DNA of 64,000 bases from a virus. Lineage: Duplodnaviria > Caudoviricetes. The translations under genes and the position numbers were made by a program. Under the pieces are notes generated by a model. That model was given only the letters and a program-made list of their open reading frames with translations, ran no database searches and was not told the DNA's origin. Within the stretch, counting starts at the first letter, position 1; every line of letters starts with the position of its first letter. The DNA lies in IMG/VR virus record IMGVR_UViG_3300006133_000004, positions 1 through 64,000 of that record. The stretch is one strand, 5' to 3'. This document shows positions 24,376 to 51,932 of the stretch, piece after piece.

Positions 24376-24636
24376 GGCGGTTCCTCGTCTTTCTTTTCAA
24401 GAGTCTTAATCGGAAGCCTTTCGATCTTATCCACTATGCGTCCAAGTTTTTGAATGCTCCAGACAATCCCGGCAAATTTCAAAATGCCTATGACCTGCTG
24501 GTTTTTGTTATGCTCTTTTACACCTCCTTCTTCGGTATAGACCTTATGCAGAAAGTCTTTTGGGTTCACATGTTTCTTCATCGAATAGCTCCTTTCGCAG
24601 GTTTGGCACCTCCTTTTATGAAGGAGGTTGACTACC

Positions 24637-24849
24637 ATGAAAATAGACAAAAAGTTAATGAACGAGGTTGAAGAGTTGTGGGTTGGCCACGAGGAGGCAT
24701 TAACTCACTTCGGACAAGTATGTGTCGCGGCAGCAAAAGCTGGGCACGATTGCAAAGTGCGAAGACATTTGCGTCTGGGTATGGTTGTAGCCACTGCGGC
24801 AACTATCATCATTACATGCTGTTTAGATTTGATGAGCGAAACTTACTAA
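24637..24849 (+). CDS. Small protein with C-terminal hydrophobic helix
   Basis: Motif and AGGAGG upstream, hairpin terminator downstream. Confidence 0.7.
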   Translation: MKIDKKLMNEVEELWVGHEEALTHFGQVCVAAAKAGHDCKVRRHLRLGMVVATAATIIITCCLDLMSETY

Positions 24850-24856
24850 AACGGGA

Positions 24857-24900
24857 GAGGCTCGCGGAAACGCGGGCTCTTTCTTTTATTTTTCCCGTTT
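24857..24900 (+). terminator. Intrinsic terminator
   Basis: GAGAGGCTCGCG-GAAA-CGCGGGCTCTTTC followed by a T-rich tract. Confidence 0.7.
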
Positions 24901-24941
24901 ATTTTGCTTTTCCCGCTATTTCCCTTTGTTTCGCCCTAATA

Positions 24942-24983
24942 ATCATATATGATAGTGTAGGAATTGTCAAGTAATTCCTATAT
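24942..24983 (-). promoter_or_regulatory. Sigma-A promoter facing the integrase, overlapped by dyads (operator-like)
   Basis: Minus strand TTGACA-N17-TATGAT; palindrome ATCATATATGAT at 24942-24953; inverted repeat TAGGAATT/AATTCCTA at 24958-24980 around the -35. Confidence 0.65.
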
Positions 24984-25037
24984 AACTTTTTAACTTAGAT
25001 TAGGAAGCTCGTACCTTAGAACAGAAAGGAGTCATGT

Positions 25038-25409
25038 ATGATTGCCAAGAACGCGTCAGTCTGCCCAAAATGCGGAGGACATCTCAGATTCTTCGACACT
25101 GTGAAACGCATTGTACGGACAAAAGCTCGGGTGGCAGAATGGATTGTAATACGCAGACTCCGGTGTACCATATGTGGTTCGTTACATAGGGAATTACCAG
25201 AGGAACTATTCCCTTACAAGCAGTACGAGGCCGAAGTCATTATCGGTGTATTGGAGGGCCTTATCACCTGCGAAACACTGGGGTTTGAGGACTATCCCTG
25301 TGAGATGACTATGTCCCGCTGGCTCGCTGAATTTACAGGTGCTGTTACGGAAAGGAGGTCGTACTATGAACGAGAAACGACTGATGGGCGAAATCGAGAA
25401 GCTGTGTAA
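25038..25409 (+). CDS. Zinc-ribbon protein, DUF6431-like
   Basis: CPKCG...RRLRCTICGSLHRELPEELFPYKQY pattern; AAAGGAG RBS. Confidence 0.65.
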   Translation: MIAKNASVCPKCGGHLRFFDTVKRIVRTKARVAEWIVIRRLRCTICGSLHRELPEELFPYKQYEAEVIIGVLEGLITCETLGFEDYPCEMTMSRWLAEFTGAVTERRSYYERETTDGRNREAV

Positions 25410-25590
25410 AGACGGTCATACGGATGCGCTACTCTACCTGTGCCGGAACTATGGAAACGCGGCAATCGAAGGGTACAGACGTGGATACCGGAAAGCATTC
25501 TGGACAGGATTGGGCGTTTCCAGTCTGATCATTACAGGTTGCATAGGAGCAATCTCGGTCATCATGAAACAGTACGGCAAGAAGAACTGA
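25366..25590 (+). CDS. Small membrane protein
   Basis: Motif at 25325, AGGAGG RBS, C-terminal TM helix. Confidence 0.7.
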   Translation: MNEKRLMGEIEKLCKDGHTDALLYLCRNYGNAAIEGYRRGYRKAFWTGLGVSSLIITGCIGAISVIMKQYGKKN

Positions 25591-25666
25591 TCCAAGGAGG
25601 GAGCGGCTAAACGGCGGCTCTCTTCTTTTCGCTTATTTCACAGGTCCTTTTACGGAGGTGACTGTT

Positions 25667-25948
25667 ATGGTAATCAGAAATAAAGAATACTACACTCAGT
25701 TTAACGAAGAGATGAGGCGAGACCGTAAAGCTTTGGACTACCACATCCGACAGGCAGAAAACTACAAGCGTATCTACCAGCTCACAAGAGGACGTTCGGG
25801 AGTATACGTCTTGTTGAACAAATGGGCCAAGAAGATGAATCAGATTCATTGCGATAAGGGATTCAAAATGGCAAAGTTGGACATGACATGGTGTCTTTAC
25901 GAAATGATGTACCTACAGAACTACATTCAGAAAGGTGAGGAGTCCTAA
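25667..25948 (+). CDS. Hypothetical protein
   Basis: Motif at 25630, GGAGGTG RBS, stop codon inside terminator loop. Confidence 0.7.
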   Translation: MVIRNKEYYTQFNEEMRRDRKALDYHIRQAENYKRIYQLTRGRSGVYVLLNKWAKKMNQIHCDKGFKMAKLDMTWCLYEMMYLQNYIQKGEES

Positions 25949-26006
25949 ACAGGGACTTTTCCCTTTTCGCTTATTTCACAGGTCCTTTTACGGAGGTGAT
26001 GTTTCA

Positions 26007-26336
26007 ATGAAACTGACGAAAGAGTATAGACGGATCTTTAATTCGGACAATGTCCACTGGTCAAAGAACACTACGTTGAATTTGTTCTTTCTTAAGACCA
26101 CACAATCACATCTTAACGATATGCTGAAGGCCAGAGGTCATCTTATGCTGAATGAAGCATATGACGCGCTCGGATTTCCGCGTACAGCGGCAGGAGCTGT
26201 GATTGGTTGGGTCTATGAAGAGGGAAACGACTTAGTTGACTTTGGTTTAGGTAAATGCGAAATTGTCGATCCCAACATTCCAATCGTCTTTAATGTCAAT
26301 GGAAACATCTTGGACAAACTGGGAGAAGAGCCCTAA
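26007..26336 (+). CDS. Stand-alone C-terminal domain of the DUF6353-like family
   Basis: [31 protein letters not shown] closely matches [31 protein letters not shown] in 38506-39468. Confidence 0.8.
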   Translation: [109 protein letters not shown]

Positions 26337-26378
26337 CAGGGGCTCTCCCTTTTCGCAGATTTTGCAGGATACATTATG

Positions 26379-26499
26379 GAAAGGAGAGAAAATCTGCTTA
26401 GGAAGAAATCCTGAATGGAACTGGTACAGGTAAAGTCTGGCTGAAATGCCGCGTGGCCATTCAGATGGGGTTCGAGTCCCCACAGCTCGCCCTTTCTCT
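26379..26499 (+). ncRNA. tRNA-like structured RNA with expanded central arm
   Basis: T-arm TGGGG-TTCGAGT-CCCCA at 26466-26482; 8-bp stem CTGAATGG/CCATTCAG; inner GGC-TGAAAT-GCC hairpin; closing AGAGAAA/TTTCTCT; directly after motif 26354; no ORF. Confidence 0.55.
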
Positions 26500-26531
26500 T
26501 TGTTTTCCGCAGATTTTACAAATTCCTTTAT

Positions 26532-26626
26532 GAAGAGGAATAAAAGGGAAACATTGAAAAGCCAAATTGTAAGACATGGTCGGCAATTACATTCGTAAGG
26601 ATGTAATCCCAAATCATGCCCTCTTC
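26532..26626 (+). ncRNA. Candidate small RNA (ORF-less motif unit)
   Basis: Begins GAAGAGG right after motif 26508 and ends CCTCTTC plus a T-run; internal ATTACAT/ATGTAAT stem. Confidence 0.45.
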
Positions 26627-26668
26627 TTTTTCGCCAAATCGGCAGTGGCCTTTATGGAGGTGATACTT

Positions 26669-26863
26669 GTGGAGACCAAGAAAATTCTTAGTACGATTGG
26701 AACGTTCGTTATTGTAGGGGCAGTATCAACAGCAGGAGCCGCATTATGGACGAACGTTTTAGATGACAAACTTAAATTGGTTAAAGCGAAGAAAACACAT
26801 TCCAAATCAGACAAAGTAATTGTTGTTGATTTCAAGAAAGTAAGGAGGGACATGAGCCGCTAA
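26669..26863 (+). CDS. Small membrane protein
   Basis: GTG start, GGAGGTG RBS, motif 26632, N-terminal TM helix. Confidence 0.7.
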   Translation: METKKILSTIGTFVIVGAVSTAGAALWTNVLDDKLKLVKAKKTHSKSDKVIVVDFKKVRRDMSR

Positions 26864-26927
26864 CACAGCGGCTCTCTCTCTTTTATTTTCCGCATAAAAC
26901 TCCACGTCCTTTATGGAGGTGAAAGTA

Positions 26928-27203
26928 ATGAGACAAGTCATTCTTTATGGAATTTCTGGAGCAAGTAGGGCCTATACAGTTCTGAATTACTTCTGTATCT
27001 ACGAGGAATTCGTATCGATCAGCACTATCTTAGGGGAAGCGAGGCGACTTCGGATGAGAAATCCGGATATCGAGCACGTTTACGCAATAGATAATCGATA
27101 CGGGCTCCGCCGTGATTACAGGGAGAGCATGAAACGGAATAGTATCGAGAGCCATTACATTTTCAAGGATATTCTGGAAAGAGAAGGTATGCGAATTATT
27201 TAA
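26928..27203 (+). CDS. Hypothetical protein
   Basis: Motif 26891 and GGAGGTG RBS. Confidence 0.7.
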   Translation: MRQVILYGISGASRAYTVLNYFCIYEEFVSISTILGEARRLRMRNPDIEHVYAIDNRYGLRRDYRESMKRNSIESHYIFKDILEREGMRII

Positions 27204-27303
27204 CTCCGAGGAGGGTCCCGGCAGGGACTTTTCCTCTTTCCGCAGGAATGGCAGTTCCCTTTATGAGAGGCTTAGGCTTCATCTGTTATAAGGAGTGGAA
27301 ACT

Positions 27304-27465
27304 ATGTTTACAAAATTGGAAATGGTCGGAGCTATTGCTATCAGCCTGTTCGGCGGATTCGCCATCGGCTACAGCAAGGCAAGAGAAATCTGTTTGCAAG
27401 CAATCATCACTGCTACCGGAGAGCAGAAGGAACCCGAGACGACCGAGAAGGAGGAGACGCCCTAA
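27304..27465 (+). CDS. Small membrane protein (53 aa, below ORF-track cutoff)
   Basis: MFTKLEMVGAIAISLFGGFAIGYS...EETP; AAGGAG RBS; motif 27241; stop in hairpin loop. Confidence 0.7.
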   Translation: MFTKLEMVGAIAISLFGGFAIGYSKAREICLQAIITATGEQKEPETTEKEETP

Positions 27466-27540
27466 ACAGGGGCTCTCCCCTTTTCGCACAAACCACAGCA
27501 CCTTTTATGGAAGAATCCATATTTGAAAGGAGAAGCAACA

Positions 27541-27888
27541 ATGAGCATGGAAAAGTTCAAAAGGTTTGTGGAGGACCATAAAAAGGAGCTGATTGCCACT
27601 ACGGCGGTCGCTGGCGGAATCGTGCTGGTGATTCTCGGGTGCAAGCGCCACAGCGGGAAGGCGGTCAAGGCCAAAGGCATATTCAGGAGGAAAGATATTT
27701 CGATCCCGGATGGCCTCAAGGTCTGGGACACGTCATACCTCTGGGTGGAGGGAAAGTACCTGAACGCAATCGTCAACAGCATTCCCGTGGACGACCTGGG
27801 TGAACTGGGCAAGCAATACATCAAGCATGGGCTCGCACAGCCTGGCGACATTGCAAGTGTCGTTATTGGAGTCGAGTACAACAAGTGA
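27541..27888 (+). CDS. Membrane-anchored hypothetical protein
   Basis: Motif 27485, AAAGGAG RBS, hydrophobic helix near the N-terminus. Confidence 0.72.
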   Translation: MSMEKFKRFVEDHKKELIATTAVAGGIVLVILGCKRHSGKAVKAKGIFRRKDISIPDGLKVWDTSYLWVEGKYLNAIVNSIPVDDLGELGKQYIKHGLAQPGDIASVVIGVEYNK

Positions 27889-28001
27889 TTCTACCAAAGG
27901 TGGAGGCCGCTAAAGCAGCGGCTTTCGCCTTTTCACCGAGGTTGTTTGTACTTCAGTGTGGTTGCTAACTTAGAATAGCCGTTGAAAGGAGGTAGTCGTT
28001 A

Positions 28002-28253
28002 ATGAGTGAACAAGAATTTCATCCAGGCTCTGTTCCAGTAGCAGTAGTAGCCCGCGTCTATGGAAAAGATGCGTCTTGGGTTCGAGCCGGCATTGTGTCA
28101 GGATGGCTTCCGATTGGTAAGGCTACCCGAAACGGCAAACTGGTGACCAGCATCAACGAGATAGACAGCCGGTACGGACGTATCAACTTTTACATCTCGC
28201 CAAAACTCCTCTATGAGGAAACCGGATTTTTATGGAAAGGAGAAAAGCGATAA
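28002..28253 (+). CDS. HTH-like DNA-binding protein (excisionase/regulator-like)
   Basis: SVPVAVVARVYGKDASWVRAGI helix-turn-helix pattern; AGGAGG RBS. Confidence 0.6.
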   Translation: MSEQEFHPGSVPVAVVARVYGKDASWVRAGIVSGWLPIGKATRNGKLVTSINEIDSRYGRINFYISPKLLYEETGFLWKGEKR

Positions 28254-28254
28254 T

Positions 28255-28674
28255 ATGCCTACAAATGTACGACCCGAAGTATCCAAGAAGAATCCCTACT
28301 ACATAGAGCGTGAGCGATACTACGAGCTGAAACACTTCTGCCGGCAGTATCCGATTTGGAAGAAAGCTCATGCGGCCCTTGATGGGCTGAGCCGGCGACC
28401 TGCTGATTTGGAGTTGTTCAGCGAGACTGGAGAGACAAGCGATCCAACATTCCGATGCGTAGCGGCCCGTGAACGCTACTCCAGATGGATGGGTATGGTT
28501 GAGCAGTGCGCTCATGAAGCGGACCCCGAGCTCTACAAGTATCTCATGAGCTATGTTACGAAAGGAGATTGCTACAGCGTTCTCAAAATGCGTGACCATA
28601 TCCCCTGCTGCAAGGATGTGTTCTACGAGACGGCCCGTAAGTTCTTTTGGCTCCTTAACAAAGTTCGAGACTGA
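28255..28674 (+). CDS. Putative transcriptional regulator (RinA/ArpU-like, tentative)
   Basis: RYYELKHFCRQY...C.KD.FYE.ARKFFWLL pattern; coupled to the HTH gene. Confidence 0.5.
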   Translation: MPTNVRPEVSKKNPYYIERERYYELKHFCRQYPIWKKAHAALDGLSRRPADLELFSETGETSDPTFRCVAARERYSRWMGMVEQCAHEADPELYKYLMSYVTKGDCYSVLKMRDHIPCCKDVFYETARKFFWLLNKVRD

Positions 28675-28742
28675 TTTGGCATCTTCCGCAGAAAATACAT
28701 CCACCTTTATGGAAGACCCAATATTAGAAAGGAGTTTGACTT

Positions 28743-28919
28743 ATGAACCGTCGTTTTAACTGGATGGACAAGCCTGTCACCTGGGGAGGTTACTTTAAGC
28801 TGTGCGGCATTTGCACTGTGGTCGGAACGGCCATCGCTGCGATTGAGCTCATCGTGTTTATGGAGCCCGCCTGGTGGAAGGCTACAAAGAACTTTGTGAG
28901 AAGACTGTTCGACAGATGA
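28743..28919 (+). CDS. Small membrane protein (58 aa)
   Basis: Motif 28687, AAAGGAG RBS, central TM helix. Confidence 0.68.
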   Translation: MNRRFNWMDKPVTWGGYFKLCGICTVVGTAIAAIELIVFMEPAWWKATKNFVRRLFDR

Positions 28920-29033
28920 ACTATCGGCATATAGGTCGGCCAAGAGGGAGGTTGTGGAAACACGGCCTCTTCTCTTTTTTATATTTTTGCTCGCACAATT
29001 TACAATGACCTTTATGGAAAGGAGGTTCGATTT

Positions 29034-29213
29034 ATGACTTACAAGCAAATTGAGGCCAGCAGAGAATTGCGGCTTTGGATCGGGCAGGTAATCGTACCGG
29101 CTGTCAGCGTGACGGCGGTAGTGCTTGCTAATCCTGACGTGAGAAATGCGGCTAAGCAAAAGCTGGACAGCATCAAGCAGAAGTTCCAGACCAAAAAGAT
29201 CAGGGTCGTGTAG
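29034..29213 (+). CDS. Small membrane-associated protein (59 aa)
   Basis: MTYKQIEASRELRLWIGQVIVPAV...; motif 28992, AGGAGG RBS. Confidence 0.7.
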   Translation: MTYKQIEASRELRLWIGQVIVPAVSVTAVVLANPDVRNAAKQKLDSIKQKFQTKKIRVV

Positions 29214-29328
29214 CAGCGACCCTTTCTTTTATATTTTCCGCATATAGGTGACTGTAATGTGTGGTAAATTGGTATTCTAAAAAATTCCCGGGTGGAAAAT
29301 TCTGAAAAACAATTTTAGGAGGAATCCT

Positions 29329-29547
29329 ATGGAAATCGTAATCGCACTCGTAGCTGTCCTTATCGGCTTTATCATCGGTCGAGTCCTTCCCAGAGAGCGC
29401 CCCCTTGGCGATTTGCGGGTTGACAGGTCTGACCCGACTTGTGAGCCCTATCTTTTTCTTGAACTGGGTACGGATGTCCGTAACGTCATGAGTAAGCGGC
29501 ACGTTACATTTCGCGTCAAAGTCGAAAACTTCCTGCCGCACGAATAA
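29329..29547 (+). CDS. Small membrane-anchored protein
   Basis: AGGAGG RBS, N-terminal TM helix. Confidence 0.72.
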   Translation: MEIVIALVAVLIGFIIGRVLPRERPLGDLRVDRSDPTCEPYLFLELGTDVRNVMSKRHVTFRVKVENFLPHE

Positions 29548-29597
29548 CACCCGCTATTATGGAGCCCAACTCTAATATTTGAAAGGAGTAAAGCAAT

Positions 29598-30272
29598 ATG
29601 GCAGAGATCAAAAGTTTGTTGGACGGCGTGATCGAGCAGGAAATCCAAAACGTGGAGGCCCTGAGCTCTGGATCTGACGAGAAGTCGAAGGCGATCCAGA
29701 ATCTCGCAACCCTGCACAAACTCCGTATCGAGGAGATCAAGGCCGAGACCGAGGCGGAAGAGAAGCGTGAACGCCGGGTTATGGACAGCGAGCAGCGTAA
29801 AGCGGAACTCGCTCTGAAAGAAAAGCAGGCTACCCAGCATCAGGCTGAGCTCTCTATCAAGGAGCGCCAGGTGGATAGTGCCGAGGCAGAACGTAAGATG
29901 AAGGACGAACAGTTCAAAGCTGAACTCGCCCTGAAGAAGCGTCAAGCCGACGGCGACACCGCTGAGCACAAGTTGAAAGAGAAGCAGAGTGAGGCTGAGT
30001 CTCAGCATAAGGGTGCCGAGCTTGTTCTGAAGGAGCGGGAGCTTGACAGCAAGGATGCTGACCGTACCCAGGAGGGAGAGCTTCAGAAACGCCAGGCCCG
30101 GGATCAGATGGTCGACCGGTGTGTGAGAGCTGGTGTGGCGGTTGGAGAACTGGTACTGCCGTTGGTATTCTACGGCATCTGGATGAACAAGGGTTTCAAG
30201 TTCGAGGAAACCGGTTCGTTCACGTCGACCACATTCAAGAACTTGCTGAATCGCTTCAGACCCACGAAGTAA
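29598..30272 (+). CDS. Coiled-coil protein with internal AEL.LK..Q repeats and C-terminal TM helix
   Basis: Motif 29537, AAAGGAG RBS, repeats visible in translation. Confidence 0.75.
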   Translation: MAEIKSLLDGVIEQEIQNVEALSSGSDEKSKAIQNLATLHKLRIEEIKAETEAEEKRERRVMDSEQRKAELALKEKQATQHQAELSIKERQVDSAEAERKMKDEQFKAELALKKRQADGDTAEHKLKEKQSEAESQHKGAELVLKERELDSKDADRTQEGELQKRQARDQMVDRCVRAGVAVGELVLPLVFYGIWMNKGFKFEETGSFTSTTFKNLLNRFRPTK

Positions 30273-30373
30273 AGGGTAAGGCTACAAAAGCGGAGAGGGC
30301 GCGGAGATTTCGCGCTCTTTTCGTTTTCGCCATTTCTACAGCGCACTTTATGAGGAAGAAGAGCTCTTTTACC

Positions 30374-30402
30374 TCGACTATTAGCCAAGAGTGGAGTATA
30401 AT
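30374..30402 (+). promoter_or_regulatory. Sigma-A/70-type promoter
   Basis: TCGACT-N17-TATAAT upstream of the AGGAGG of the next gene. Confidence 0.55.
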
Positions 30403-30436
30403 ACTATACAACACTTCTGGACTACATCAGGAGGTA

Positions 30437-30772
30437 ATGAAAGTGCGTAAAAAGGGTAAAGAGATCATTCGGCCGGTAGGAGTTGAGATCAGGGAGTATC
30501 TCAATGACGGCTGGGGTATCTGCAACAACTGCGGAGCGCTTATGGATGAGGAAATCAGGGATAGAATTGGAGTATTCACCTGCCCGGCATGTGGCTGGGA
30601 GTGCGATGTTATGGATTATGAGTACGAGGAGGAAGACACTATGGAACTCGTACAGGATGAAAGAGGTGACGAGTACCTGATTCCGAGAGATGATATGCCG
30701 CCCGCGGGGTGCAGAGCTTGTGGAGGTCCATATCCCTACTGCAAAGCATCTTGCAAGATGTATGACGACTAA
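30437..30772 (+). CDS. Zinc-ribbon (three Cys clusters) acidic protein
   Basis: CNNC, CPAC and CRACGGPYPYC motifs; AGGAGG RBS. Confidence 0.72.
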   Translation: MKVRKKGKEIIRPVGVEIREYLNDGWGICNNCGALMDEEIRDRIGVFTCPACGWECDVMDYEYEEEDTMELVQDERGDEYLIPRDDMPPAGCRACGGPYPYCKASCKMYDD

Positions 30773-30978
30773 GCATTATCAAAATGGAGGAGAGTCCTGG
30801 AAAAGCCGGGGCTCTTTCTCTTTATCTCTGAACTTTGTGAGGAGATTCGCAGATTTTGCAAATCGTATTATGGAAAGGAAGTATGAGAGACGCATGTTGT
30901 TGGTGAAAACCCAACCATCTACGAGGAGTGCGATCCTCCCTCGTAGCCTTTTCTTTTTATTTTCTTGGAGGGATTGTG

Positions 30979-31338
30979 ATGCGCTATCATTTCGAGAAGC
31001 CGGCTGTTTCGCTGTCGATGTATGGTCGGCGTTACATTTGCAACCATCCGGTGTATGACAGTTGCACCTTGTTCGAAATTGATGAAAAGGGTTTAGCTGT
31101 GATACAGCAGAGATTTGATCCTAAGACAAAGAGTACATCCTGGACAGAGGTAGACGCCTATTTGACCGACGTTTTATATTTGCACCCCAAGTTCAAGGAG
31201 TTCTTTGACAGTCGGGCCAGAACTTGTACGGACGGCCTCTACCCTACCGTAACCATTCGGCAAATCATGTGGGCTTTGAAAATGAAGCCTTTGCCTAAGC
31301 AAACATGGGAAACCGTGTTCGACCGTTCGCCAATTTAG
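30979..31338 (+). CDS. Hypothetical protein
   Basis: GGAGG RBS, 119 aa. Confidence 0.7.
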   Translation: MRYHFEKPAVSLSMYGRRYICNHPVYDSCTLFEIDEKGLAVIQQRFDPKTKSTSWTEVDAYLTDVLYLHPKFKEFFDSRARTCTDGLYPTVTIRQIMWALKMKPLPKQTWETVFDRSPI

Positions 31339-31396
31339 CGCCGAATAGACAGCCTCTCTTATGGAGAGATCCAAAATTTTTGAAGGGAGCTAAATT

Positions 31397-32113
31397 ATGA
31401 ATCTCAAACTTTTGAAGAGCTTAGGGGCTTTGTGCAAAGAGCAGTTACCTACGATCCTATCAGGAGCGGCAGTGATTGGAGTCTTTGCAACTGGAATCTG
31501 TGCGGCTAAGGCAACTTTGAAAGCAAAGGAAGAGGTTGAGAAGCTGGAGGAGCCGACAACCTTTGAGAAGTTCAAGGTGGCGGCACCCATTTATGGGCCG
31601 TGCGTTGCCATCGGAGGAGCAACCGTTGCTTGCATTCTTGGTGCCAACCGAGTCAGTGTCAAGCGTTATGCAGCTCTTGCTGGGACTTGCGCTATTGCAA
31701 AGACTCAACTGCAAGAGCACAAGGACAAGGTGCTTGAGATGTTTGGCAAAGAGAAAGCAGAAGCTGTTGAACAGGAGATTGCCAAAGATCAAGTAAGCAA
31801 GAAGGCGACTGGCGGACTAATCTGTGCAAGCGACGAGCTCGTGACATGCAAGGATCTTGTGACTGGGATGGTGTTCAAGTCAAGCATGGTCCGGATACAA
31901 GCTGCGGCAAACAACGTCAACACATTGGTGCTACTGGATGGCGCTGCTGGGTTGACGGATTTCTACGATCAGCTTGACGAAGAACACACGCCAATCATGG
32001 AAAGAGTACGATGGCATTGCGATTCACGCATTCCGACGATGCAGATAGAGTTTGGAGCGGAGATTTCGGAGCATGGACTCCCATACTTGACGTTCACTTA
32101 CGAGTGTGACTGA
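31397..32113 (+). CDS. DUF6353-like membrane-associated protein, paralogue 1
   Basis: PTILSG...AAKATLKA / YGPC...CILGAN pattern shared with three other ORFs. Confidence 0.75.
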   Translation: MNLKLLKSLGALCKEQLPTILSGAAVIGVFATGICAAKATLKAKEEVEKLEEPTTFEKFKVAAPIYGPCVAIGGATVACILGANRVSVKRYAALAGTCAIAKTQLQEHKDKVLEMFGKEKAEAVEQEIAKDQVSKKATGGLICASDELVTCKDLVTGMVFKSSMVRIQAAANNVNTLVLLDGAAGLTDFYDQLDEEHTPIMERVRWHCDSRIPTMQIEFGAEISEHGLPYLTFTYECD

Positions 32114-32210
32114 TGGTGACTGCTGAGGGGCGCAAAGCCTCTTAGCTTTTTACCGCCAATTCCGCAACTCCTATTATGGACACCAATACCTATGAAAGGG
32201 GTTAAGGAGT

Positions 32211-32426
32211 ATGGATGAGATGAGAATTGAATCGAAGTTTACAAGAGGAATTGCGTCGAGGCTTATCAAGAAGGCCATGCGTGACAAATTGGGCTACAAT
32301 GTAGATGTTCAGCTCAATAAGTTCCGCACGACCGTCATCGAGGAGAAGACGCACGTCCATCTGGACATCGAACTGGATCTCAGCAAAGAGGAACTTGACA
32401 AACTGTTAAAGAGCATTGGTCTCTGA
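32211..32426 (+). CDS. Hypothetical protein
   Basis: Motif 32154, AAGGAG RBS. Confidence 0.72.
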   Translation: MDEMRIESKFTRGIASRLIKKAMRDKLGYNVDVQLNKFRTTVIEEKTHVHLDIELDLSKEELDKLLKSIGL

Positions 32427-32480
32427 GGCAAAAGCCGCTGTTACGCAAGATATTCACACCGTATTATGGAGGTGATCGCT

Positions 32481-32668
32481 ATGAGATTTGACAGCAAAAA
32501 GGTATTCAAGTTTGCGGGAGAAGTTAGTGGTTGTGTCGTCATGGGAATTGTTTCCGCGGCAACGCAGACGCTTTGGTACAGAATCGCAGAACCCAAGATA
32601 CTTAACGCTATGGACAAAAATGAGGCAAAGCGAAAGCAGCCAATAGGTTTTAGGGGGGGGAGTCCTAA
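32481..32668 (+). CDS. Small membrane protein; probable frameshift at G8 tract near 3' end
   Basis: Motif 32444 and RBS. One extra G at 32653-32660 gives ...GGES-stop with TAA in the terminator loop, as in neighbouring units. Confidence 0.6.
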
Positions 32669-32711
32669 CGGGCTCCTCTCTCCTTTTCGCAGATTTTGCA
32701 CATTCCTTTAT

Positions 32712-32770
32712 GGAGAGAAAGAGTTCTGCCCGATTAGCGTTGGGAGCAAGAATTGTGGCGACTTTCTCTC
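32712..32770 (+). ncRNA. Candidate small hairpin RNA (ORF-less motif unit)
   Basis: 9-bp closing stem GAGAGAAAG/CTTTCTCTC immediately after motif 32688, then a T-run and the next motif. Confidence 0.45.
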
Positions 32771-32810
32771 TTTTTCTTCCGCAGATTTTACAAATCGTAT
32801 TATGGAGAGG

Positions 32811-32882
32811 AGACAGTTAGCTCAGTTGGTAGAGCGCAACCTGAAATGGTTGAGGTCATCGGTTCGAGTCCGATACAGCCTC
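32811..32882 (+). tRNA. Degenerate tRNA-Phe(GAA)-like element (probably not a translating tRNA)
   Basis: Perfect D-arm GCTC-AGTTGGTA-GAGC and T-arm ATCGG-TTCGAGT-CCGAT; anticodon stem CAACC/GGTTG with only a 6-nt loop TGAAAT; acceptor 5/7 paired; no CCA. Confidence 0.6.
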
Positions 32883-32916
32883 TCTAATTTTTTCGTCGAG
32901 GAAAGGAGAAACAGGA

Positions 32917-33102
32917 ATGAGAAAAGAAATGAAGCCGATTCTCATCGGCGCATTGACCGCAGGCGTCATCATTGCGGTTGGTGTTGGGTTTCATGCATGG
33001 ACCATCAAAACTATCCCTTATTCCTATCGTCAGAATCTCTTAGATGCCGTTGACTATCTCGCCGGCAAAAATGTTTTCAACAGAGTCGATTCATTACAGT
33101 AA
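32917..33102 (+). CDS. Small membrane-anchored protein
   Basis: AAAGGAG upstream, N-terminal TM helix. Confidence 0.6.
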   Translation: MRKEMKPILIGALTAGVIIAVGVGFHAWTIKTIPYSYRQNLLDAVDYLAGKNVFNRVDSLQ

Positions 33103-34458: not shown

Positions 34459-34618
34459 AAACCTCTGGAACGATGTCATTTATGGAACTCCGATGGCATC
34501 CTTAGCGGCTGCGAGCAAGCTTTATGATCTCGGTGAAATGAGTAAAAAGACGTTCCAAGTCCTTGTTCTCGCAGCGGGCATCGAATCTACAGATAAAAAA
34601 GGAGGTAAATGGAAATGA
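34439..34618 (+). CDS. Small hypothetical protein
   Basis: GTG after GAAGGAG; fills the gap between genes. Confidence 0.45.
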   Translation: MDLKKHRNLWNDVIYGTPMASLAAASKLYDLGEMSKKTFQVLVLAAGIESTDKKGGKWK

Positions 34619-35439
34619 AGCCTAAGCAAGGTCTGGTGAAGCAGACCCAAAAAGCCTTAAAAAAGGCGTCGCCGACAATCTTGAGCATCCTCGGAGTTGT
34701 CGGCGTGGTTACAACGGCGGTTTTGGCCGTCAAAGCTACACCCAAAGCCCTCGAACGTATTGAGGATGCTAAAGAGGCTAAAAACCTCGAAAACGGCAAA
34801 GATTTGACCCGGATGGAGACGGCAGCAGCTTGCTGGCAATGTTATATCCCTGCTGCCGCCACTGGAATCGCCACAATCGGGTGCATTATGGGCGCAAATG
34901 TCCTGAATCGGCGTCAACAGGCTTCTCTCGCCAGTGCGTATGCTTTACTTAACCGAACGTACCAGGACTACACAAAATCGGTCAAGAACGTCTTCGGCGA
35001 AGAAGGTCATAAGCGCGTCTTGGAGGATATGGCCATTGAGCGGGTTCCCGAGAATCACACAATCTATACCGAGGGTATGTTTGAATCTACTACCTTAGAT
35101 TTCTGCATCCCTGAGGAGGAGCATCTGTTTTACGATGTTTATTCCAACCGGCAATTCGCTTCTACCATCGGAAAGGTGCTTCAGGCCGAATACCATCTGA
35201 ACAGGATGTTCGCTCTGAATGGAAATGTCTCACTCAATGACTTCTATAAGTATCTCGGACTCGACCCTGTTCCTGAAGGAGACGACATTGGATGGTGGGT
35301 CGATTTCGATAATGAGGTATATTGGGTCGAGTTCAATCATGCTGTCTCTTACATTGATGACGGGCCTGAACATCCGCAAGTCGAGTGTCTCATTATTGAG
35401 TTTCCTCAGCCGCCGGGTCTTCCGCCTCCCGAGGAGTAA
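34609..35439 (+). CDS. DUF6353-like protein, paralogue 2
   Basis: SPTILSILG...AVKATPKA...YIPAAATG...LNDFYKYLG. Confidence 0.8.
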   Translation: MEMKPKQGLVKQTQKALKKASPTILSILGVVGVVTTAVLAVKATPKALERIEDAKEAKNLENGKDLTRMETAAACWQCYIPAAATGIATIGCIMGANVLNRRQQASLASAYALLNRTYQDYTKSVKNVFGEEGHKRVLEDMAIERVPENHTIYTEGMFESTTLDFCIPEEEHLFYDVYSNRQFASTIGKVLQAEYHLNRMFALNGNVSLNDFYKYLGLDPVPEGDDIGWWVDFDNEVYWVEFNHAVSYIDDGPEHPQVECLIIEFPQPPGLPPPEE

Positions 35440-35485
35440 TCCGCAGAAACAACACACTCTATTGTGGAAAGGAGGCTAAGGCTTC

Positions 35486-36030: not shown

Positions 36031-36795
36031 GTGAACAAGCAAACCTTTGTAAAGGCGCTTAAAAATGTTCCGAAAATTCTGAAAAAGCACAGTCCTGAGC
36101 TTTTGACAGGTATCGGCATCGCAGGGATGATCTTTACAACCATTACAGCCGTCAAAGCCACTCCCAAGGCCCTTCGCCTCGTAGACGAGCGAGAAATCAA
36201 GGAAGGAAAGCGACTGACTAATTCGGAGATCGTCAAGACAACTTGGAAGTGCTACGTTCCCGCAGCTGTGACTGGTGTGTGCTCCATTGGGTGTTTGATC
36301 GGTGCCAGCTCGGTCAACGCGAGGCGAAATGCGGCTTTAGCCACTGCCTACACCATCTCTGAGACAGCTTTCAAAGAGTACAAGGAGAAGGCGGTCGAGG
36401 TTGTTGGTGAAAAGAAGGAGCAAGCGATTCGTGATGCAGTCGCTAAGGACAAACTGGAGAAAGCCCAGGTGGCCAGCCGAGAGTTCATCATCACCGGCAA
36501 AGGAGAAACCCCCTGCTTCGACCCGCTCACCAACTCCTGTTTTAAGTCCGATATTGAGATTCTGCGGAAGGCAGAAAACATCCTGAATAAGCGGATGCGG
36601 GACGACATGGTCATAACCGTCAACGAGTTCTTACAGGAAATCGGCCTGGACTCCTGCGACGATGCCATTGGAGAGAACATGGGCTGGGATATCGACAAAG
36701 GCTACATTGACCTGGACTTCAGTTCGCAGTTGGTCGATGGCGTTCCCTACCTTGTCATCGGACATCACAATCCGCCCCGCTACATCGGACGATAG
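36031..36795 (+). CDS. DUF6353-like protein, paralogue 3
   Basis: GTG start, AAGGAG RBS; HSPELLTGIG...AVKATPKA. Confidence 0.8.
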   Translation: MNKQTFVKALKNVPKILKKHSPELLTGIGIAGMIFTTITAVKATPKALRLVDEREIKEGKRLTNSEIVKTTWKCYVPAAVTGVCSIGCLIGASSVNARRNAALATAYTISETAFKEYKEKAVEVVGEKKEQAIRDAVAKDKLEKAQVASREFIITGKGETPCFDPLTNSCFKSDIEILRKAENILNKRMRDDMVITVNEFLQEIGLDSCDDAIGENMGWDIDKGYIDLDFSSQLVDGVPYLVIGHHNPPRYIGR

Positions 36796-36866
36796 CGTCC
36801 GCAAAAATTGCAAACCGTATTATGGAGAGATCCACACTAAAATCTTTAATAAAGGAGTAATTCAAA

Positions 36867-40241: not shown

Positions 40242-40396
40242 TGGACATGGAGGGATTTGCGAACCTTGTGTCCATGATGGACTATGTGGTTGACACAAAA
40301 CGGAAGCGTCATATCACCGGCGGGCTCCTGATTAGCATGGCTATGCTTTTTGGGGGCCTTGCCATCACGGTGATGAGCGCTAAAGAGGAGGACTAA
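40241..40396 (+). CDS. Small membrane protein (51 aa)
   Basis: Coupled start; KRKRHITGGLLISMAMLFGGLAITVM. Confidence 0.6.
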   Translation: MDMEGFANLVSMMDYVVDTKRKRHITGGLLISMAMLFGGLAITVMSAKEED

Positions 40397-40399
40397 ATT

Positions 40400-41038
40400 A
40401 TGGGTAAACTCAATACCGTAATTGCCTTCTTCACAGGAGCTGCTGTTGGCGGTGCGGCCGTTTGGTACATAACCAAAGAGCGGTATGCTCAGCTTGCCGA
40501 AGAGGAGATCAACTCCGTGAAAGAGGCTTACTCCCATAGGGGAGAGAAAAAAGAGAAAGCCGATGCGGCCCTGCGGCGGTATCAGGGAGAGGGCGAAGAG
40601 GAGCCCAAGACTCCTGTTGTGACTACTAAAGTCACTGAAAAAGAGAGCATCTCCGAATACGCCAAGAGGGTTCAAAATGGGGCTCCGATGGAGTATTCCA
40701 AAACAGTCGTACCACCCAAGGCTATGGAGCCGGAGAAACCCGCTCCCCCCGTCACCTCGGGTGATGTCCCCTATGTTATTTCACCTGAGGAGTTTGACGA
40801 ACTTGAAGGCTACACTCCGATCAGCCTGACTTACTTCGCCGATGGCGTATTGGCAGATGAGAACGGTGTTATTGTCGATGATGTGGAAGAGATTATTGGC
40901 GATGCACTGGAACATTTCGGCGAGTACGAGGAAGACGCAGTCTTCGCTCGAAACGACGCAAAACGATGCGACTATGAAATTCTGAAAGACGAACGCACAT
41001 ATGCGGAGTTTCGGAAAACTCTTCCGACCAACATCTAA
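40400..41038 (+). CDS. Membrane-anchored acidic protein
   Basis: N-terminal TM helix; PYVISPEEF...LTYFADGVLADE C-terminal domain. Confidence 0.75.
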   Translation: MGKLNTVIAFFTGAAVGGAAVWYITKERYAQLAEEEINSVKEAYSHRGEKKEKADAALRRYQGEGEEEPKTPVVTTKVTEKESISEYAKRVQNGAPMEYSKTVVPPKAMEPEKPAPPVTSGDVPYVISPEEFDELEGYTPISLTYFADGVLADENGVIVDDVEEIIGDALEHFGEYEEDAVFARNDAKRCDYEILKDERTYAEFRKTLPTNI

Positions 41039-41611: not shown

Positions 41612-41612
41612 C

Positions 41613-47404: not shown

Positions 47405-47482
47405 GGCATGTGCAGGGGCGCTGGTTAGGAGGTGACTGGCGCTCCTGCTCTTCGCTTTATATTTGAAAGGAGAAAAGTTCAA

Positions 47483-47851: not shown

Positions 47852-48327
47852 AGAAATCTTTCTGGCGACATTTTCAGCTCCCAAGAAAACGCAAACCAAA
47901 ACCCAAGGCAGAATTGGTGGTGTATAAGCCACCTAAAAAGCACATGACGGAACCTGACCGTTGGAAGCCGCCATTTGCAACGACCAAGGAGGCTCCGCCT
48001 CTCAAAGTTGAGAATCAGGACTTAATTGTTCTGAACGAAACGATAGGATTTGACCTTGGCAAGGTTACGGCGACAGTCGGCATTATGCTGCAAGCGAGAA
48101 TGGACTATACCTTTCAGCTGTTTGTAGACGAATGCCTCGAACGTTTTAAGGCGCAGGATTGGGGCGGCGTAAACGAAAAAGAAAGGCGGTTGAATGACCT
48201 CAGAGTCACAGCACGGACTGGGACTATTTGCGGCATCTACACTGAACTCGGCTCTGGAGTGCAAATCTGGATCGCAACTGACTTGGATCAGGGTATCACA
48301 AGGATTTGTCTCTCTGACGAACGCTGA
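47848..48327 (+). CDS. Hypothetical protein with basic N-terminus and DWG...IWI.TD domain
   Basis: C-terminal pattern resembles a plasmid/ICE-associated family; AT-richer region. Confidence 0.6.
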   Translation: MKKSFWRHFQLPRKRKPKPKAELVVYKPPKKHMTEPDRWKPPFATTKEAPPLKVENQDLIVLNETIGFDLGKVTATVGIMLQARMDYTFQLFVDECLERFKAQDWGGVNEKERRLNDLRVTARTGTICGIYTELGSGVQIWIATDLDQGITRICLSDER

Positions 48328-48340
48328 AAGAGGTGTGGTT

Positions 48341-49366: not shown

Positions 49367-49370
49367 ATCC

Positions 49371-49574
49371 ATGCAGGCTTTTACAAAAACCGAAATCTCA
49401 TGGTTAATTATTGAGCTCGATAAGCAGGCTGCAATTCTCAATTTGGATGCCAAAGACCCTATCAATAAAAGCATTTCTGAAACTTATCGGCTCAGATCGG
49501 AACAGTACGCTGATATTTCTCGGCGACTTCGCCTGGCCCTTAAAGAGGGCAGTAAACGAATTGAAATCAAGTAA
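49371..49574 (+). CDS. Small hypothetical protein
   Basis: AAGGAG RBS. Confidence 0.55.
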   Translation: MQAFTKTEISWLIIELDKQAAILNLDAKDPINKSISETYRLRSEQYADISRRLRLALKEGSKRIEIK

Positions 49575-49633
49575 ATCTGTTATTAAGCAGCTAATCAGAG
49601 CTGCTTATATTTTTGAAAGGAGAAAAAACAACT

Positions 49634-50149
49634 ATGAGCACTAACCATATGCCTCCCCTTGAAGTGATCGAGCAGGGGTTGAAGGACGACGATTGCGATG
49701 TCCGGGCTGCGGCCATGAACGCCTGCCAGGGCCGGGAGGTGCCCCTTGAAGTGATCGAGCAGGGGTTGAAGGACGACGATTGTGATGTCCGGGCTGCGGC
49801 CATGAACGCCTGCAAAGTAAACAATATGCCGATTCCGGTGATTCGGACGATTGAACCGCCCAAGCTGGTCTACAAGAAGTGCGTCGGCGGCATTATTGTT
49901 GTTGCCTCTATTCCCCAGGACGCCCAGGTTCGTGGCAGTATCGGTCACAAGTGCCGGGCCAGCAAAGCAGTCATCAAAGAAATCATCGGTGATCTCTGCG
50001 GAGAGCGAGTCGGGATTTCTAAGTATGACCTGAGGACTCTTTACTATGCTGGGGACGAGGTTGAAATCGACAACTTCGATTTCAGTAATGAGGAATGCTC
50101 CACCGGCTTCCACTTCTTCTGCACAATCGAAGAGGCCCGGAACTACTAA
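49634..50149 (+). CDS. HEAT-like repeat + DUF5758-like protein
   Basis: Two LKDDDCDVRAAA repeats; YKKC...IPQDAQV...KCRASKA...ECSTGFHFF C-terminal domain. Confidence 0.7.
   Translation: MSTNHMPPLEVIEQGLKDDDCDVRAAAMNACQGREVPLEVIEQGLKDDDCDVRAAAMNACKVNNMPIPVIRTIEPPKLVYKKCVGGIIVVASIPQDAQVRGSIGHKCRASKAVIKEIIGDLCGERVGISKYDLRTLYYAGDEVEIDNFDFSNEECSTGFHFFCTIEEARNY
49655..49813 (+). repeat. 72-bp near-perfect duplication, 87-bp period
   Basis: 49655-49726 versus 49742-49813 differ at one base. Confidence 0.9.
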
Positions 50150-50168
50150 GCATTAGGAGGGGATTCAA

Positions 50169-50617
50169 ATTTTAAGTCAGGCACTATTCTCTACGGGCAA
50201 GAATGACTGGGCAACTCCGCAGGAACTCTTTAACGAGCTCGATGCGGAGTTTCATTTTACGCTCGATCCTTGTGCAACTCCGGAAACGGCAAAATGCGCA
50301 AAATTTTACACGGAAGAAGACAACGGTCTTGCCCAAGATTGGACTGGAGAGACAGTGTTCTGCAACCCTCCCTACTCTGACCAGCAGCAAACCGAATGGG
50401 TTAAAAAATGCTATGAACATGGAGTTCGGGGGGGGTAGCAGTTATGCTGATACCAGCCAGAACCGATACGAAACGTTTTCACGAATACATTTATGGAAAT
50501 GCAGAGATACGGTTCATCAAAGGCCGGTTGAAGTTCGGCGGGTGTGAAAACTCTGCACCCTTCCCCTCCATGATCGTTGTGTTTGGAAAAGATCCTATTG
50601 AAAGGAGGACGCGGCCA
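50169..50617 (+). pseudogene. Phage Dam-type N6-adenine DNA methyltransferase, split at G8 tract 50428-50435
   Basis: First frame: DWATPQELF...LDPCA...FCNPPY, stopping at 50436. Second frame: VAVMLIPARTD...GRLKF...APFPS. One extra G joins them; only ATT is available as a start. Confidence 0.78.
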
Positions 50618-51859
50618 ATGGGGCGCATCAATCTCCGTGACTACCAGCTTGACGCTATTAAGCGGATGAAAAATGGATGCATCCTGTGTGGCGGTGTCGG
50701 AAGCGGTAAATCACGCACTTCCCTTGCATACTATTACGATTTGCAAGGCGGCGATCTTCTTGCGCCAGATGAAGTCGCTATGAAGAACCCGCAAAACCTC
50801 TATATCATTACGACCGCTCGGAAACGGGACACCTGCGAGTGGGAGGGGGAACTGGCTCCGTTCCTCCTCTCTACTCATCCTGACTGCAACTACTACAAGA
50901 ATACGGTAGTTGTGGATTCATGGAACAACATTGGAAAATACACGGATGTCAAAGATGCATTCTTTATATTTGATGAACAGCGGGTAGTTGGTTATGGTGC
51001 TTGGACAAAAGCTTTCCTCAAGATTGCCAAGGCCAATAACTGGATTCTGCTATCCGCTACTCCCGGGGACACTTGGCAGGACTACATTCCAGTCTTCATC
51101 GCCAATGGGTTCTATCGCAACAAGACTGATTTCGTTGACCAGCATGTCAACTATGACTGGCGAGCCAAATACCCGAAGATCGATAGCTATCGGAACACAG
51201 GACGTCTGATCCGGCTTCGCAACAGTATTCTCGTAAACATGGACTTTAAGCGGCAGACTATTTCTCATCATGAGGACATCCCCGTCCCGTATGATATTTC
51301 CAAGTATAAGGACATCATGCGGAAACGTTGGAATCCATGGGAAGATCGGCCAATCGAAACGGCAGCGGAGTTGTGTATGGCTCTTCGGCGAGTCGTCAAT
51401 TCCGATGAAGCTCGTTCAGTTGCGACGCTTGAAATCTTGGAAGACCACCCCAAGGCCATTATCTTTTACAGCTATGACTATGAGCTGGAGATTCTTCGCT
51501 CCCTTGGATATTCGGAGGGTACGGAGATAGCGGAGTGGAACGGTCATAAGCATCAGGAGATCCCGACAAGCGACAAATGGGTCTATCTTGTCCAGTACAC
51601 GGCTGGCTGCGAAGGGTGGAACTGCATCACAACCGATACCATTATATTCTACTCCCAGCAGTATTCGTACAAGGTGGCGACGCAAGCAGCCGGACGAATT
51701 GACCGACTCAACACCCCATACCAAGATTTGCACTACTACCATCTGAAGAGTTTCTCTGGAATCGACCTCGCTATCAGCAAAGCCCTTAAACAGAAGAAGA
51801 ACTTCAACGAGGGTAAGTTTGTTGGCTGGGCCACCAAGCCGATGCCAAGAGCCGCATAA
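50618..51859 (+). CDS. SF2 (SNF2-like) helicase
   Basis: LRDYQ, GGVGSGKS, FIFDE, LLSATP, EGWN...QAAGRIDR; own AGGAGG RBS. Confidence 0.88.
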   Translation: MGRINLRDYQLDAIKRMKNGCILCGGVGSGKSRTSLAYYYDLQGGDLLAPDEVAMKNPQNLYIITTARKRDTCEWEGELAPFLLSTHPDCNYYKNTVVVDSWNNIGKYTDVKDAFFIFDEQRVVGYGAWTKAFLKIAKANNWILLSATPGDTWQDYIPVFIANGFYRNKTDFVDQHVNYDWRAKYPKIDSYRNTGRLIRLRNSILVNMDFKRQTISHHEDIPVPYDISKYKDIMRKRWNPWEDRPIETAAELCMALRRVVNSDEARSVATLEILEDHPKAIIFYSYDYELEILRSLGYSEGTEIAEWNGHKHQEIPTSDKWVYLVQYTAGCEGWNCITTDTIIFYSQQYSYKVATQAAGRIDRLNTPYQDLHYYHLKSFSGIDLAISKALKQKKNFNEGKFVGWATKPMPRAA

Positions 51860-51932
51860 TTTGCAAGTCCTATTACGGAGGAGATGCTACATAGCGTCTT
51901 CTTTTATATTTTATGAAAGGAGGCGAAATGCC

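Follow-up and report, generated by a model that had tools for sequence, protein, structure and literature searches.

A one-strand, multi-copy candidate promoter motif that accompanies a two-barrel RNA polymerase in Oscillospiraceae prophages and in other phages of Firmicutes and Actinobacteria

A recurrent motif heading an array of short cassettes

The window analysed here, 64,000 nucleotides of a Caudoviricetes gut phage, is the first 64 kb of the 84,369-bp IMG/VR record IMGVR_UViG_3300006133_000004, which has close relatives among the prophages of Oscillospiraceae (Muriventricola, Pseudoflavonifractor and 'Clostridiales bacterium CCNA10'). On its tail side lie a gene for a 3074-residue tape-measure protein, further tail genes and a putative diversity-generating retroelement (DGR); elsewhere it encodes DUF6353 paralogues, a DUF5906 primase-polymerase, a methylase, a helicase and a ligase, and NrdD and other genes are encoded beyond it. 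The element that concerns us is a candidate promoter motif, CGCH-N7-CA-N7-TTAYG in its strict form. Twenty copies crowd into 24.6–33 kb, forming a plus-strand array of very short cassettes, with single copies at 35445, 36800, 51853, 65679, 77871 and 79888; the tail/DGR/lysis arm (1–24.5 kb) is free of them.

The strict pattern occurs 21 times on the plus strand of the window and not at all on the minus strand. Dinucleotide shuffles of the window give an expectation of 0.13 matches and a maximum of 2, so that the motif is equally common neither on the opposite strand nor in shuffled sequence. Relaxing the pattern to CGC[ACT]-N16-TTA[CT]G gives 24 plus-strand sites and again none on the minus strand; these are the same 24 copies that had been described in an earlier, sequence-only reading of the window. 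Two of them, at 40378 and 50714, score below 18 bits with a position weight matrix (PWM) built from the motif copies and are probably chance matches, and the copy at 35445 has to be added, which leaves 23 credible copies, 22 of them clear and one a TTGTG variant. The CA, previously counted as in register in 23 of the 24, is so in 21. The site at 26891 has CC where CA is expected, and is counted as genuine since the rest fits. Applied to the whole record, the PWM finds 26 forward and no reverse matches, three of them beyond the window.

Position-wise conservation was counted over 25 copies, taking the G after TTAT as +1. The conserved block covers ~ 33 bases, from about − 28 to + 8, and is longer than the three boxes, with the consensus TTTT-CGC-A-n-A-W-W-t-n-R-CA-N4-C-Y-t-TTAT-G-G-A-R-R. 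A T-run at − 28 to − 25 is followed by CGC at − 24 to − 22, an A-rich position at − 21 and only A or T at − 19 to − 16; then come a purine at − 14, CA at − 13/− 12, C and a pyrimidine at − 7/− 6, and TTAT at − 4 to − 1. Downstream, G is found at + 1 in 25/25 copies and at + 2 in 21/25, A at + 3 in 23/25, and purines at + 4 and + 5. The purine-rich sequence that had been noticed immediately after TTATG is therefore present and belongs to the conserved block itself. In many units the true Shine–Dalgarno sequence lies 20–30 nt further on, and so the purine run is part of the element and not simply a ribosome site. The start codon is 13–43 nt from the + 1 G in most coding units; in five units the Shine–Dalgarno sequence GGAGGTG occupies + 2 to + 8 and the start codon follows at + 13 to + 15.

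Two further features of the earlier description are also borne out. The 37-bp block shared by two of the copies (Table 1) is exactly identical, with no extension beyond, and the copies do usually stand behind a hairpin and T-run, with at least five Ts among the ten upstream bases in 16 of 25 and a stable hairpin in front of most of them. With a terminator on one side of every copy and a ribosome site or RNA gene on the other, the start signal has to fall within about − 24 to + 2. In four units that have no open reading frame (ORF), pairing in the minimum-energy fold begins at nucleotide + 1, the partner being the 3′ end immediately ahead of the T-run. The transfer RNA (tRNA) starts at + 8 in this phage and at + 3 in the Faecalibacterium phage FP_oengus. 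As far as sequence goes, the four folds and the FP_oengus tRNA support the proposal that transcription begins at the G after TTAT.

A sigma-A promoter was considered and rejected, in agreement with the sequence-only reading, on geometry, on a missing A and on the positions of the Shine–Dalgarno sequences and tRNA. If the hexamer at − 6 to − 1 is read as a − 10 element, the A expected at its second position is present in 8/25 copies and lacking in 17/25, and no conserved box is found in the motif copies 17 bp upstream of it. The ACA box is 5 bp and the CGC box 13–15 bp from this hexamer, not 17 ± 1. A sigma-A start 6–8 nt past the TTTATG ‘− 10’ would cut off the Shine–Dalgarno sequence in the five units just mentioned, and would cut into the tRNA of FP_oengus. 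The additional claim of a separate class of ordinary sigma-A promoters has weak support. Matches at 22–38 kb are not above chance (25 versus 17 ± 4.7), and the two best sigma-70-like sites, 24970>24942 and 23112>23084, are on the minus strand beside the integrase.

A two-barrel polymerase and its association with the motif

The sequence-only reading placed the phage polymerase or activator that would use the motif outside the window, and likened initiation at the G to that of T7-type promoters. A candidate polymerase is indeed encoded there, at record 81361–84048, and it has the DFDGD loop, but it is of the two-barrel, cellular-like kind and not of the T7 type. The 895-residue protein matches phrog_4291, ‘RNA-dependent RNA polymerase’, with E = 0. 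The only Pfam domains recognised in it are helix-turn-helix (HTH) domains, with Sigma70_r4 at the C-terminus among them, which accounts for its usual annotation as a DNA-binding protein; the HTH/sigma-70 region 4 matches are at residues 857–895 and HTH repeats at 39–114. A sequence search of the PDB likewise returned HTH-repeat matches only, and the enzyme was identified by fold search. With the AlphaFold2 model (predicted local distance difference test score, pLDDT, 82) as query, Foldseek against the PDB gave QDE-1 (E 2e-9) and the P74-26 gp62 and P23-45-type gp64 phage RNA polymerases (2e-7), followed by plant RDR2 and P23-45 gp96 and, after these, by the largest subunits of cellular polymerases. 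Whole-chain template-modelling scores are low (~ 0.3), which is usual when the model has several domains. Across 40 aligned sequences with 45–55% identity to the query, SGADFDGD (506–513), R462-x-P464, D596 and K599 are invariant in 40/40. The protein thus has the catalytic residues and, in the model, the predicted fold of a two-barrel (double-psi beta-barrel) RNA polymerase.

At 50% identity and E ≤ 1e-30 the family falls into 916 clusters, and it is carried by 250 deposited phage genomes, where the gene is mostly labelled ‘HTH DNA-binding protein’. Its ‘1706 family’ was listed among five YonO-like families by Ruprich-Robert and Thuriaux (PMC2919709). Koert et al. 2021 (bioRxiv 10.1101/842583) described the HTH–RNA-dependent RNA polymerase–HTH protein as the signature gene of a cross-phylum phage group, and had already noted the DxDGD loop and the HTH domains at both ends. 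A T7-like polymerase or a phage sigma factor was rejected as the reader, neither PF00940 (T7-type RNA_pol) nor Sigma70_r2 being matched in the record; the PF00940 result is weak alone, as the search controls were also matchless, and all ORFs above ~ 400 residues are assigned to families other than T7-type polymerase. The sole sigma region 4-like signal in the record is that within the two-barrel polymerase.

Some features of the polymerase and its neighbours were noted in passing. Its N-terminus (HYG..SGRYPWGSG; LMHYGVKRRSGRYPWGSG) is invariant and disordered, and resembles the DUF7211 leader of two adjacent proteins at record 77906–79486, which have a 25-residue DUF7211 motif near the N-terminus (..AHHG[VI][KR]G..WG[VI]R); one of the two has a weak papain-fold glutamine-deamidase match. 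That the shared leader is a packaging or processing tag is speculation. In a subgroup of the IMG/VR relatives (G006, G009, G015, G020, G022, G049 and G050) the polymerase matches in two pieces, ~ 1–660 and ~ 655–893, which fall in one open frame of ~ 1000–1040 residues, as if a segment had been inserted near residue 655.

The motif and the polymerase are found together well beyond this record. Among 80 IMG/VR relatives, for which the scan of the record with the PWM was extended, there are 154 forward and no reverse matches. FP_oengus, with a polymerase 54% identical to ours, has 14 copies of CGCGAAAAAnnCA-N7-TTTATG. A de novo expectation-maximisation search that was not seeded by this motif recovered one-strand motifs of this same geometry in the three phages on which it was run: TTTAAGTTTTACA-N7-TAATG in Lactococcus phage P092 (10 copies), CGCA-N7-CA-N7-TARTG-AGACCCC in Streptomyces phage HotFries (about 6 copies) and CGCGTAAATTACA-N7-TAATG in Arthrobacter phage Circum (9 copies). 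The pattern CGC-N8-CA-N7-TWRTR gave forward/reverse counts of 7/0 in Gordonia phage Chikenjars, 4/0 in Bifidobacterium phage BitterVaud1, 12/0 in Streptomyces phage Rima, 8/0 in Curtobacterium phage Yotsuba and 5/0 in Microbacterium phage Damascus, with 0–1 matches for reversed-pattern controls in the same five phages. Altogether 10/10 polymerase-bearing lineages, from Firmicutes and Actinobacteria, have a multi-copy motif of the same geometry on one strand. Ten polymerase-free phages (SPbeta, sk1, phiC31, FP_Lagaffe, FP_Brigit, L5, GTE2, R4, ArV2 and Min1), none of which shows a polymerase match, have 0–2 copies.

The association was also examined in reverse, using 50 IMG/VR contigs chosen solely by an exact 17-base version of the motif. 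The polymerase is encoded in 29/50 of these, and in 20/24 of the records that are at least 90% complete. The remaining four near-complete records have one copy each, without the A/T-rich block, and all near-complete records with several copies encode the polymerase. One contig that is 78% complete has nine copies and no polymerase; it ends 273 bases past the last of these, at the place expected for the polymerase operon. In this sample, then, records with the motif and no gene were either fragments or chance matches.

Hosts were checked in three Oscillospiraceae genomes of 3.1–3.7 Mb that contain related prophages. In the first, 16 copies are found in the 63-kb prophage versus 6 in 3.5 Mb, the number also given by reversed-pattern controls (6). 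In the second and third the counts in the prophage and elsewhere are 17 versus 2 and 9 versus 7. Outside the prophage the motif is thus at chance level in all three, indicating that the host does not use the signal.

Genomic setting and cassette contents

The copy at 79888 stands in front of an operon that comprises a small ORF and the genes for an HNH endonuclease, a PD-(D/E)XK exonuclease and the polymerase. A motif copy ~ 0.9–1.5 kb upstream of the polymerase gene is found here, in the IMG/VR relatives, in FP_oengus and in Circum. The endonuclease gene (HNH/NUMOD homing type, record 80252–80797) lies inside this conserved nuclease–polymerase operon, directly upstream of the exonuclease gene. 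In the relatives, the 10 kb downstream of the polymerase, which hold head genes, contain no motif copy. In a close relative there is no strong terminator or sigma-70-like site between polymerase and terminase, and because of this read-through into the late genes, as in the late operon of SPbeta, appears possible from the sequence.

The record is a fragment, without terminase, portal and capsid genes though rated 100% complete. In a relative with a 95%-identical polymerase the sequence past our right end holds a gene, then terminase, portal and protease-capsid genes, which are absent from this record. This record and many related contigs end 300–450 nt past the polymerase gene, and in the actinophage relatives seen the polymerase gene stops about 300–500 bp short of the right-hand end in the linear records deposited; these ends may be those of the genome itself or may come from a repeat at which assemblies break. 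The only DNA similarity to deposited phages is a 216-bp match, in the polymerase gene.

The positions of the motif copies and associated sites in the window are given in Table 1.

Table 1 Motif copies and associated features in the window; positions after the G of TTAYG are counted from that G as + 1
Feature	Position	Strand	Remarks
Motif copy 1	24596–24620	+	Putative + 1 G at 24620; first plus-strand unit beside divergent integrase module
Motif copy, TTACG variant	25325–25349	+	Overlaps 3′ end of ORF 25038–25409
Motif copy	25630–25654	+	Inside 37-bp block 25625–25661; Shine–Dalgarno + 2, ATG + 13
Motif copy	25968–25992	+	Inside 37-bp block 25963–25999; ATG + 15
Motif copy	26354–26378	+	Heads ORF-less tRNA-like unit, 26378 to about 26505; 5′ end pairs with 3′ end
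Motif copy	26508–26532	+	Heads ~ 100-nt ORF-less unit closing from nucleotide + 1
Motif copy	26632–26656	+	Shine–Dalgarno + 2, GTG + 13
Motif copy, CC for CA	26891–26915	+	Shine–Dalgarno + 2, ATG + 13
Motif copy	27241–27265	+	Strict pattern
Motif copy	27485–27509	+	Strict pattern
Motif copy	28687–28711	+	Strict pattern
Motif copy	28992–29016	+	Strict pattern
Motif copy	29537–29561	+	Overlaps end of ORF 29329–29547
Motif copy	30328–30352	+	Followed by 85-nt leader containing sigma-70-like site 30374–30402
Motif copy	30848–30872	+	Strict pattern
Motif copy	31339–31363	+	Precedes DUF6353/phrog_2152 gene 31397–32113
Motif copy	32154–32178	+	Strict pattern
Motif copy	32444–32468	+	Shine–Dalgarno + 2, ATG + 13
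Motif copy	32688–32712	+	Heads ~ 65-nt ORF-less hairpin RNA closing from + 1
Motif copy	32780–32804	+	Heads tRNA unit; tRNA 32811–32882 from + 8; + 1 to + 7 pairs with 3′ trailer
Variant copy CGCAGAAACAACACACTCTATTGTG, TTGTG for TTATG	35445–35469	+	Found by PWM only, 25.9 bits
Motif copy	36800–36824	+	Directly behind DUF6353 gene 36031–36795
Motif copy, TTACG	51853–51877	+	End of helicase gene, ahead of ligase region
Probable chance match	40378–40402	+	Shine–Dalgarno and ATG of ORF 40400; without CA; < 18 bits
Probable chance match	50714–50738	+	Within helicase gene; CA out of register; < 18 bits
Tyrosine integrase	23140–24375	−	Boundary between late (tail/DGR/lysis) arm and plus-strand promoter-cassette array
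Near-consensus sigma-70-like site TTGACA-17-TATGAT	24942–24970	−	Points toward integrase module

Many cassettes in 25590–32690 are closed by members of a near-identical terminator family, with a consensus around CTAAACAGGGGCTCTCCCCTTTT (for example 25937–25961, 26854–26874 and 27460–27484). Under crude ORF masking this family was the top de novo motif, and with better masking the promoter motif was recovered. The ORF-less units at 26378–26505, 26532–26631 and 32712–32779 each form a single closed fold whose closing helix doubles as the terminator stem, and the first of these contains a tRNA-like T-arm. The tRNA, at about 32810–32884, is reported by ARAGORN as ‘tRNA-???’ with a four-base anticodon (gaaa) and matches the Rfam tRNA model with 47.5 bits; its acceptor stem looks irregular, and the 5′ leader GGAGAGG of the unit pairs with the 3′ trailer CCTCTC. 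An open frame of 190–195 residues at 32466–33053 spans a terminator, two of the motif copies and the tRNA gene. This is probably not a single genuine gene, or else the point at which it ends is uncertain.

Among other genes of the window, four DUF6353/phrog_2152 paralogues were found, three of them at 34609–35439, 36031–36795 and 38506–39468 and the other behind the copy at 31339; FP_oengus has three. At 18833–20130 an RT-18 RNA (Rfam RF03021, 65 bits) immediately precedes a 391-residue reverse transcriptase ORF, and the two adjoin a gene for a 915-residue Big_3 tail protein in what looks like a DGR cassette. An ADP-ribosylglycohydrolase-like protein (phrog_6572, E 6.5e-55) is encoded at 53811–54596.

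The probable reader of the motif and its relation to known systems

Our favoured explanation is that the motif is the promoter of a transcription system private to the phage. From the arrangement of the sequence, we regard it as very likely that most of the copies are working promoters, and as probable that they are read by the two-barrel polymerase of the phage itself. The promoter would then be made up of blocks about one helical turn apart, CGC at − 24 to − 22, an A/T-rich stretch ending in RCA at − 19 to − 12 and C-Y-t-TTAT at − 7 to − 1, and the RNA would start at the invariant G and continue with G-A-R-R. Its reader would be the 895-residue single-chain enzyme of the Lactococcus 1706/Faecalibacterium FP_oengus/actinophage family, whose HTH modules at both ends may bind the upstream boxes as its catalytic core melts the AT-rich TTAT. 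Such promoters would head ~ 20 short early or non-structural cassettes in 24.6–33 kb, containing small genes, the tRNA and small structured RNAs, most of which are closed by their own terminator; a few would head longer operons, and the promoter at 79888, conserved in relatives, would serve the nuclease–polymerase operon itself. A stronger version, in which the polymerase is self-sufficient, the fused HTHs reading the CGC and ACA boxes and the core melting TTAT and starting at the G with neither a host nor a phage co-factor, we put forward tentatively, as something a little less than an even chance. Delivery of the polymerase with the virion to fire the early cassettes is a possibility.

Several points weigh against this explanation. 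Transcription of DNA has been shown for the distant YonO (PMC5467207) and for no member of the phrog_4291 family, and specificity could come from other proteins that are likewise conserved in these phages (bioRxiv 10.1101/842583). In P092 the CGC box is absent even though the polymerase is complete at both ends. A polymerase operon that lies behind its own promoter, at 79888, would need another source of the first molecules; sigma-70-like sites are somewhat enriched at 64–84 kb of the record (40 versus 22 ± 5). Lastly, in many lineages the bases at − 6 to − 1 are TATAAT or TATAGT, a perfect bacterial − 10, and in actinobacterial lineages, where a − 10 alone can serve as a promoter, the use of host polymerase with a phage co-factor is possible.

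These last two points lead to the reading in which host RNA polymerase is redirected by a phage factor, as in the middle promoters of T4 (MotA/AsiA) or with gp28 of SPO1. TTTAT/TATAAT would then be − 10-like and CGC and ACA would be activator sites. The − 10 sequences just mentioned occur in the Arthrobacter, Gordonia, Streptomyces and Lactococcus lineages, the G-G-A that follows resembles a favourable discriminator, and the bootstrapping of a polymerase gene behind its own promoter would be resolved. Against it stand the 17/25 copies here that lack the A at hexamer position 2, and the downstream start, which would remove five Shine–Dalgarno sequences and cut the FP_oengus tRNA. No sigma region 2 is encoded in the record, the geometry is constant from Lactococcus to Streptomyces despite very different sigma and promoter habits, and the sole conserved protein with both DNA-binding and polymerase signatures is the two-barrel enzyme. 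We therefore consider redirection of the host enzyme unlikely.

It is much less probable still that the copies are not promoters at all. They are asymmetric, in one orientation, intergenic and numerous, and so are the stoperators of phage L5, to which they might correspond as oriented protein-binding sites; and three of them (24596, 65679 and 26508) can form a hairpin between − 10 to − 4 and the Shine–Dalgarno sequence, as might be wanted of sites of processing or translation control at the RNA level. However, hairpin potential within sites is no greater than between sites (permutation p = 0.21), a comparison by which a hairpin across the start site was rejected, whether in DNA, as in N4, or in RNA, where it would mask the Shine–Dalgarno sequence. 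The stoperator analogy is also at odds with the presence of the motif in Circum, an Arthrobacter cluster AM phage, since only Galaxy among 46 Arthrobacter phages encodes an integrase (PMC5513430). For either kind of site, it has to be set against them that the motif is the only candidate start signal behind strong terminators, including those before the tRNA and small-RNA units, and that conservation runs on into + 1 to + 5. A promoter borrowed from a host alternative sigma factor (ECF-, sigma-54- or sigma-A-like) hardly merits consideration: the 16-nt gap from the CGCN box to TTATG is superficially like a − 35/− 10 spacing and boxes at − 24 and − 12 recall sigma-54, but CGC-N8-CA mismatches GG-N10-GC (TGGCAC-N5-TTGC) in both spacing and bases, there is no sigma-70 spacing, and the motif is at chance level outside the prophage in the three host genomes yet conserved in phages of two phyla.

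That a phage-encoded polymerase can have promoters of its own is known from T7, N4, phiKZ/AR9 and P23-45. A close parallel to the private system favoured here is Thermus phage P23-45, which likewise has its own two-barrel polymerases, the virion enzyme gp96 with an AT-rich motif and the non-virion gp64 with a GC-rich one. There too a private multi-copy motif lies upstream of early genes and is restricted to relatives that carry the enzyme (bioRxiv 10.1101/2022.12.01.518664/PMC10770324), and the gp64-type fold ranks among the top structural hits for the 895-residue polymerase. The two systems differ in the sequences of their motifs and in the enzyme, which here is of a separate family, phrog_4291, with fused HTH domains at either end. 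The start sites of P23-45 have been mapped and its enzymes assayed (PMC10770324), whereas the present system is known from sequence alone.

The promoters of T7, T3 and SP6 are similar in being long, rigid and of one piece, with an upstream specificity region, an AT-rich − 4 to − 1 and an invariant + 1 G. The start is purine-rich in both cases (GGAGA here, GGGAGA in T7), and as in T7 there are many copies on one strand which are absent from the host. The enzyme, however, is of the two-barrel kind and not the Pol I-like right hand, and the promoter reaches to about − 28 with its blocks a helical turn apart.

To our knowledge, no promoter has been defined for any YonO-like enzyme. YonO of the Bacillus prophage SPbeta, which like ours is a single-chain two-barrel polymerase of a temperate Firmicutes siphophage, is a processive DNA-dependent RNA polymerase that transcribes phage genes (Forrest et al. 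2017, PMC5467207). It has one mapped start site (P_yonO) and a long late operon, with the promoter sequence left undefined (PMC5467207); here ~ 26 promoters would serve cassettes that are early or non-structural, and HTH domains are fused to the enzyme. In SPbeta the pattern search found no copy genome-wide, and the PWM found none between yonO and yonK.

The polymerase of the actinophage/Lactococcus 1706/FP_oengus supercluster (Koert et al. 2021) is of the same protein family, with 36–54% identity. The word ‘promoter’ does not occur in that paper (bioRxiv 10.1101/842583), and a motif travelling with the gene is not described there. In the literature that we searched, no described promoter and no published 5′-end data were found for the phrog_4291-type polymerase family. 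This type of system is thus known and the polymerase family has been predicted in the literature; it is a description of the promoter that we have not found.

The consensus of ~ 33 bp is a directly testable template for a large polymerase family. It may be of use for better annotation of transcription units in hundreds of phage genomes and, possibly, for an orthogonal expression system for Gram-positive bacteria. Were the polymerase to act unaided, it would be the smallest known promoter-specific relative of the cellular RNA polymerases, and enzyme and motif together would be a natural orthogonal polymerase–promoter pair working from Lactococcus to Streptomyces. If the phage polymerase does read the motif, this would explain how such phages manage their early transcription in host groups as far apart as Oscillospiraceae, Lactococcus, Arthrobacter and Streptomyces, and would present a catalytic core of the cellular type finding its promoters by means of fused HTHs, which bears on how promoters were recognised before there were sigma factors.

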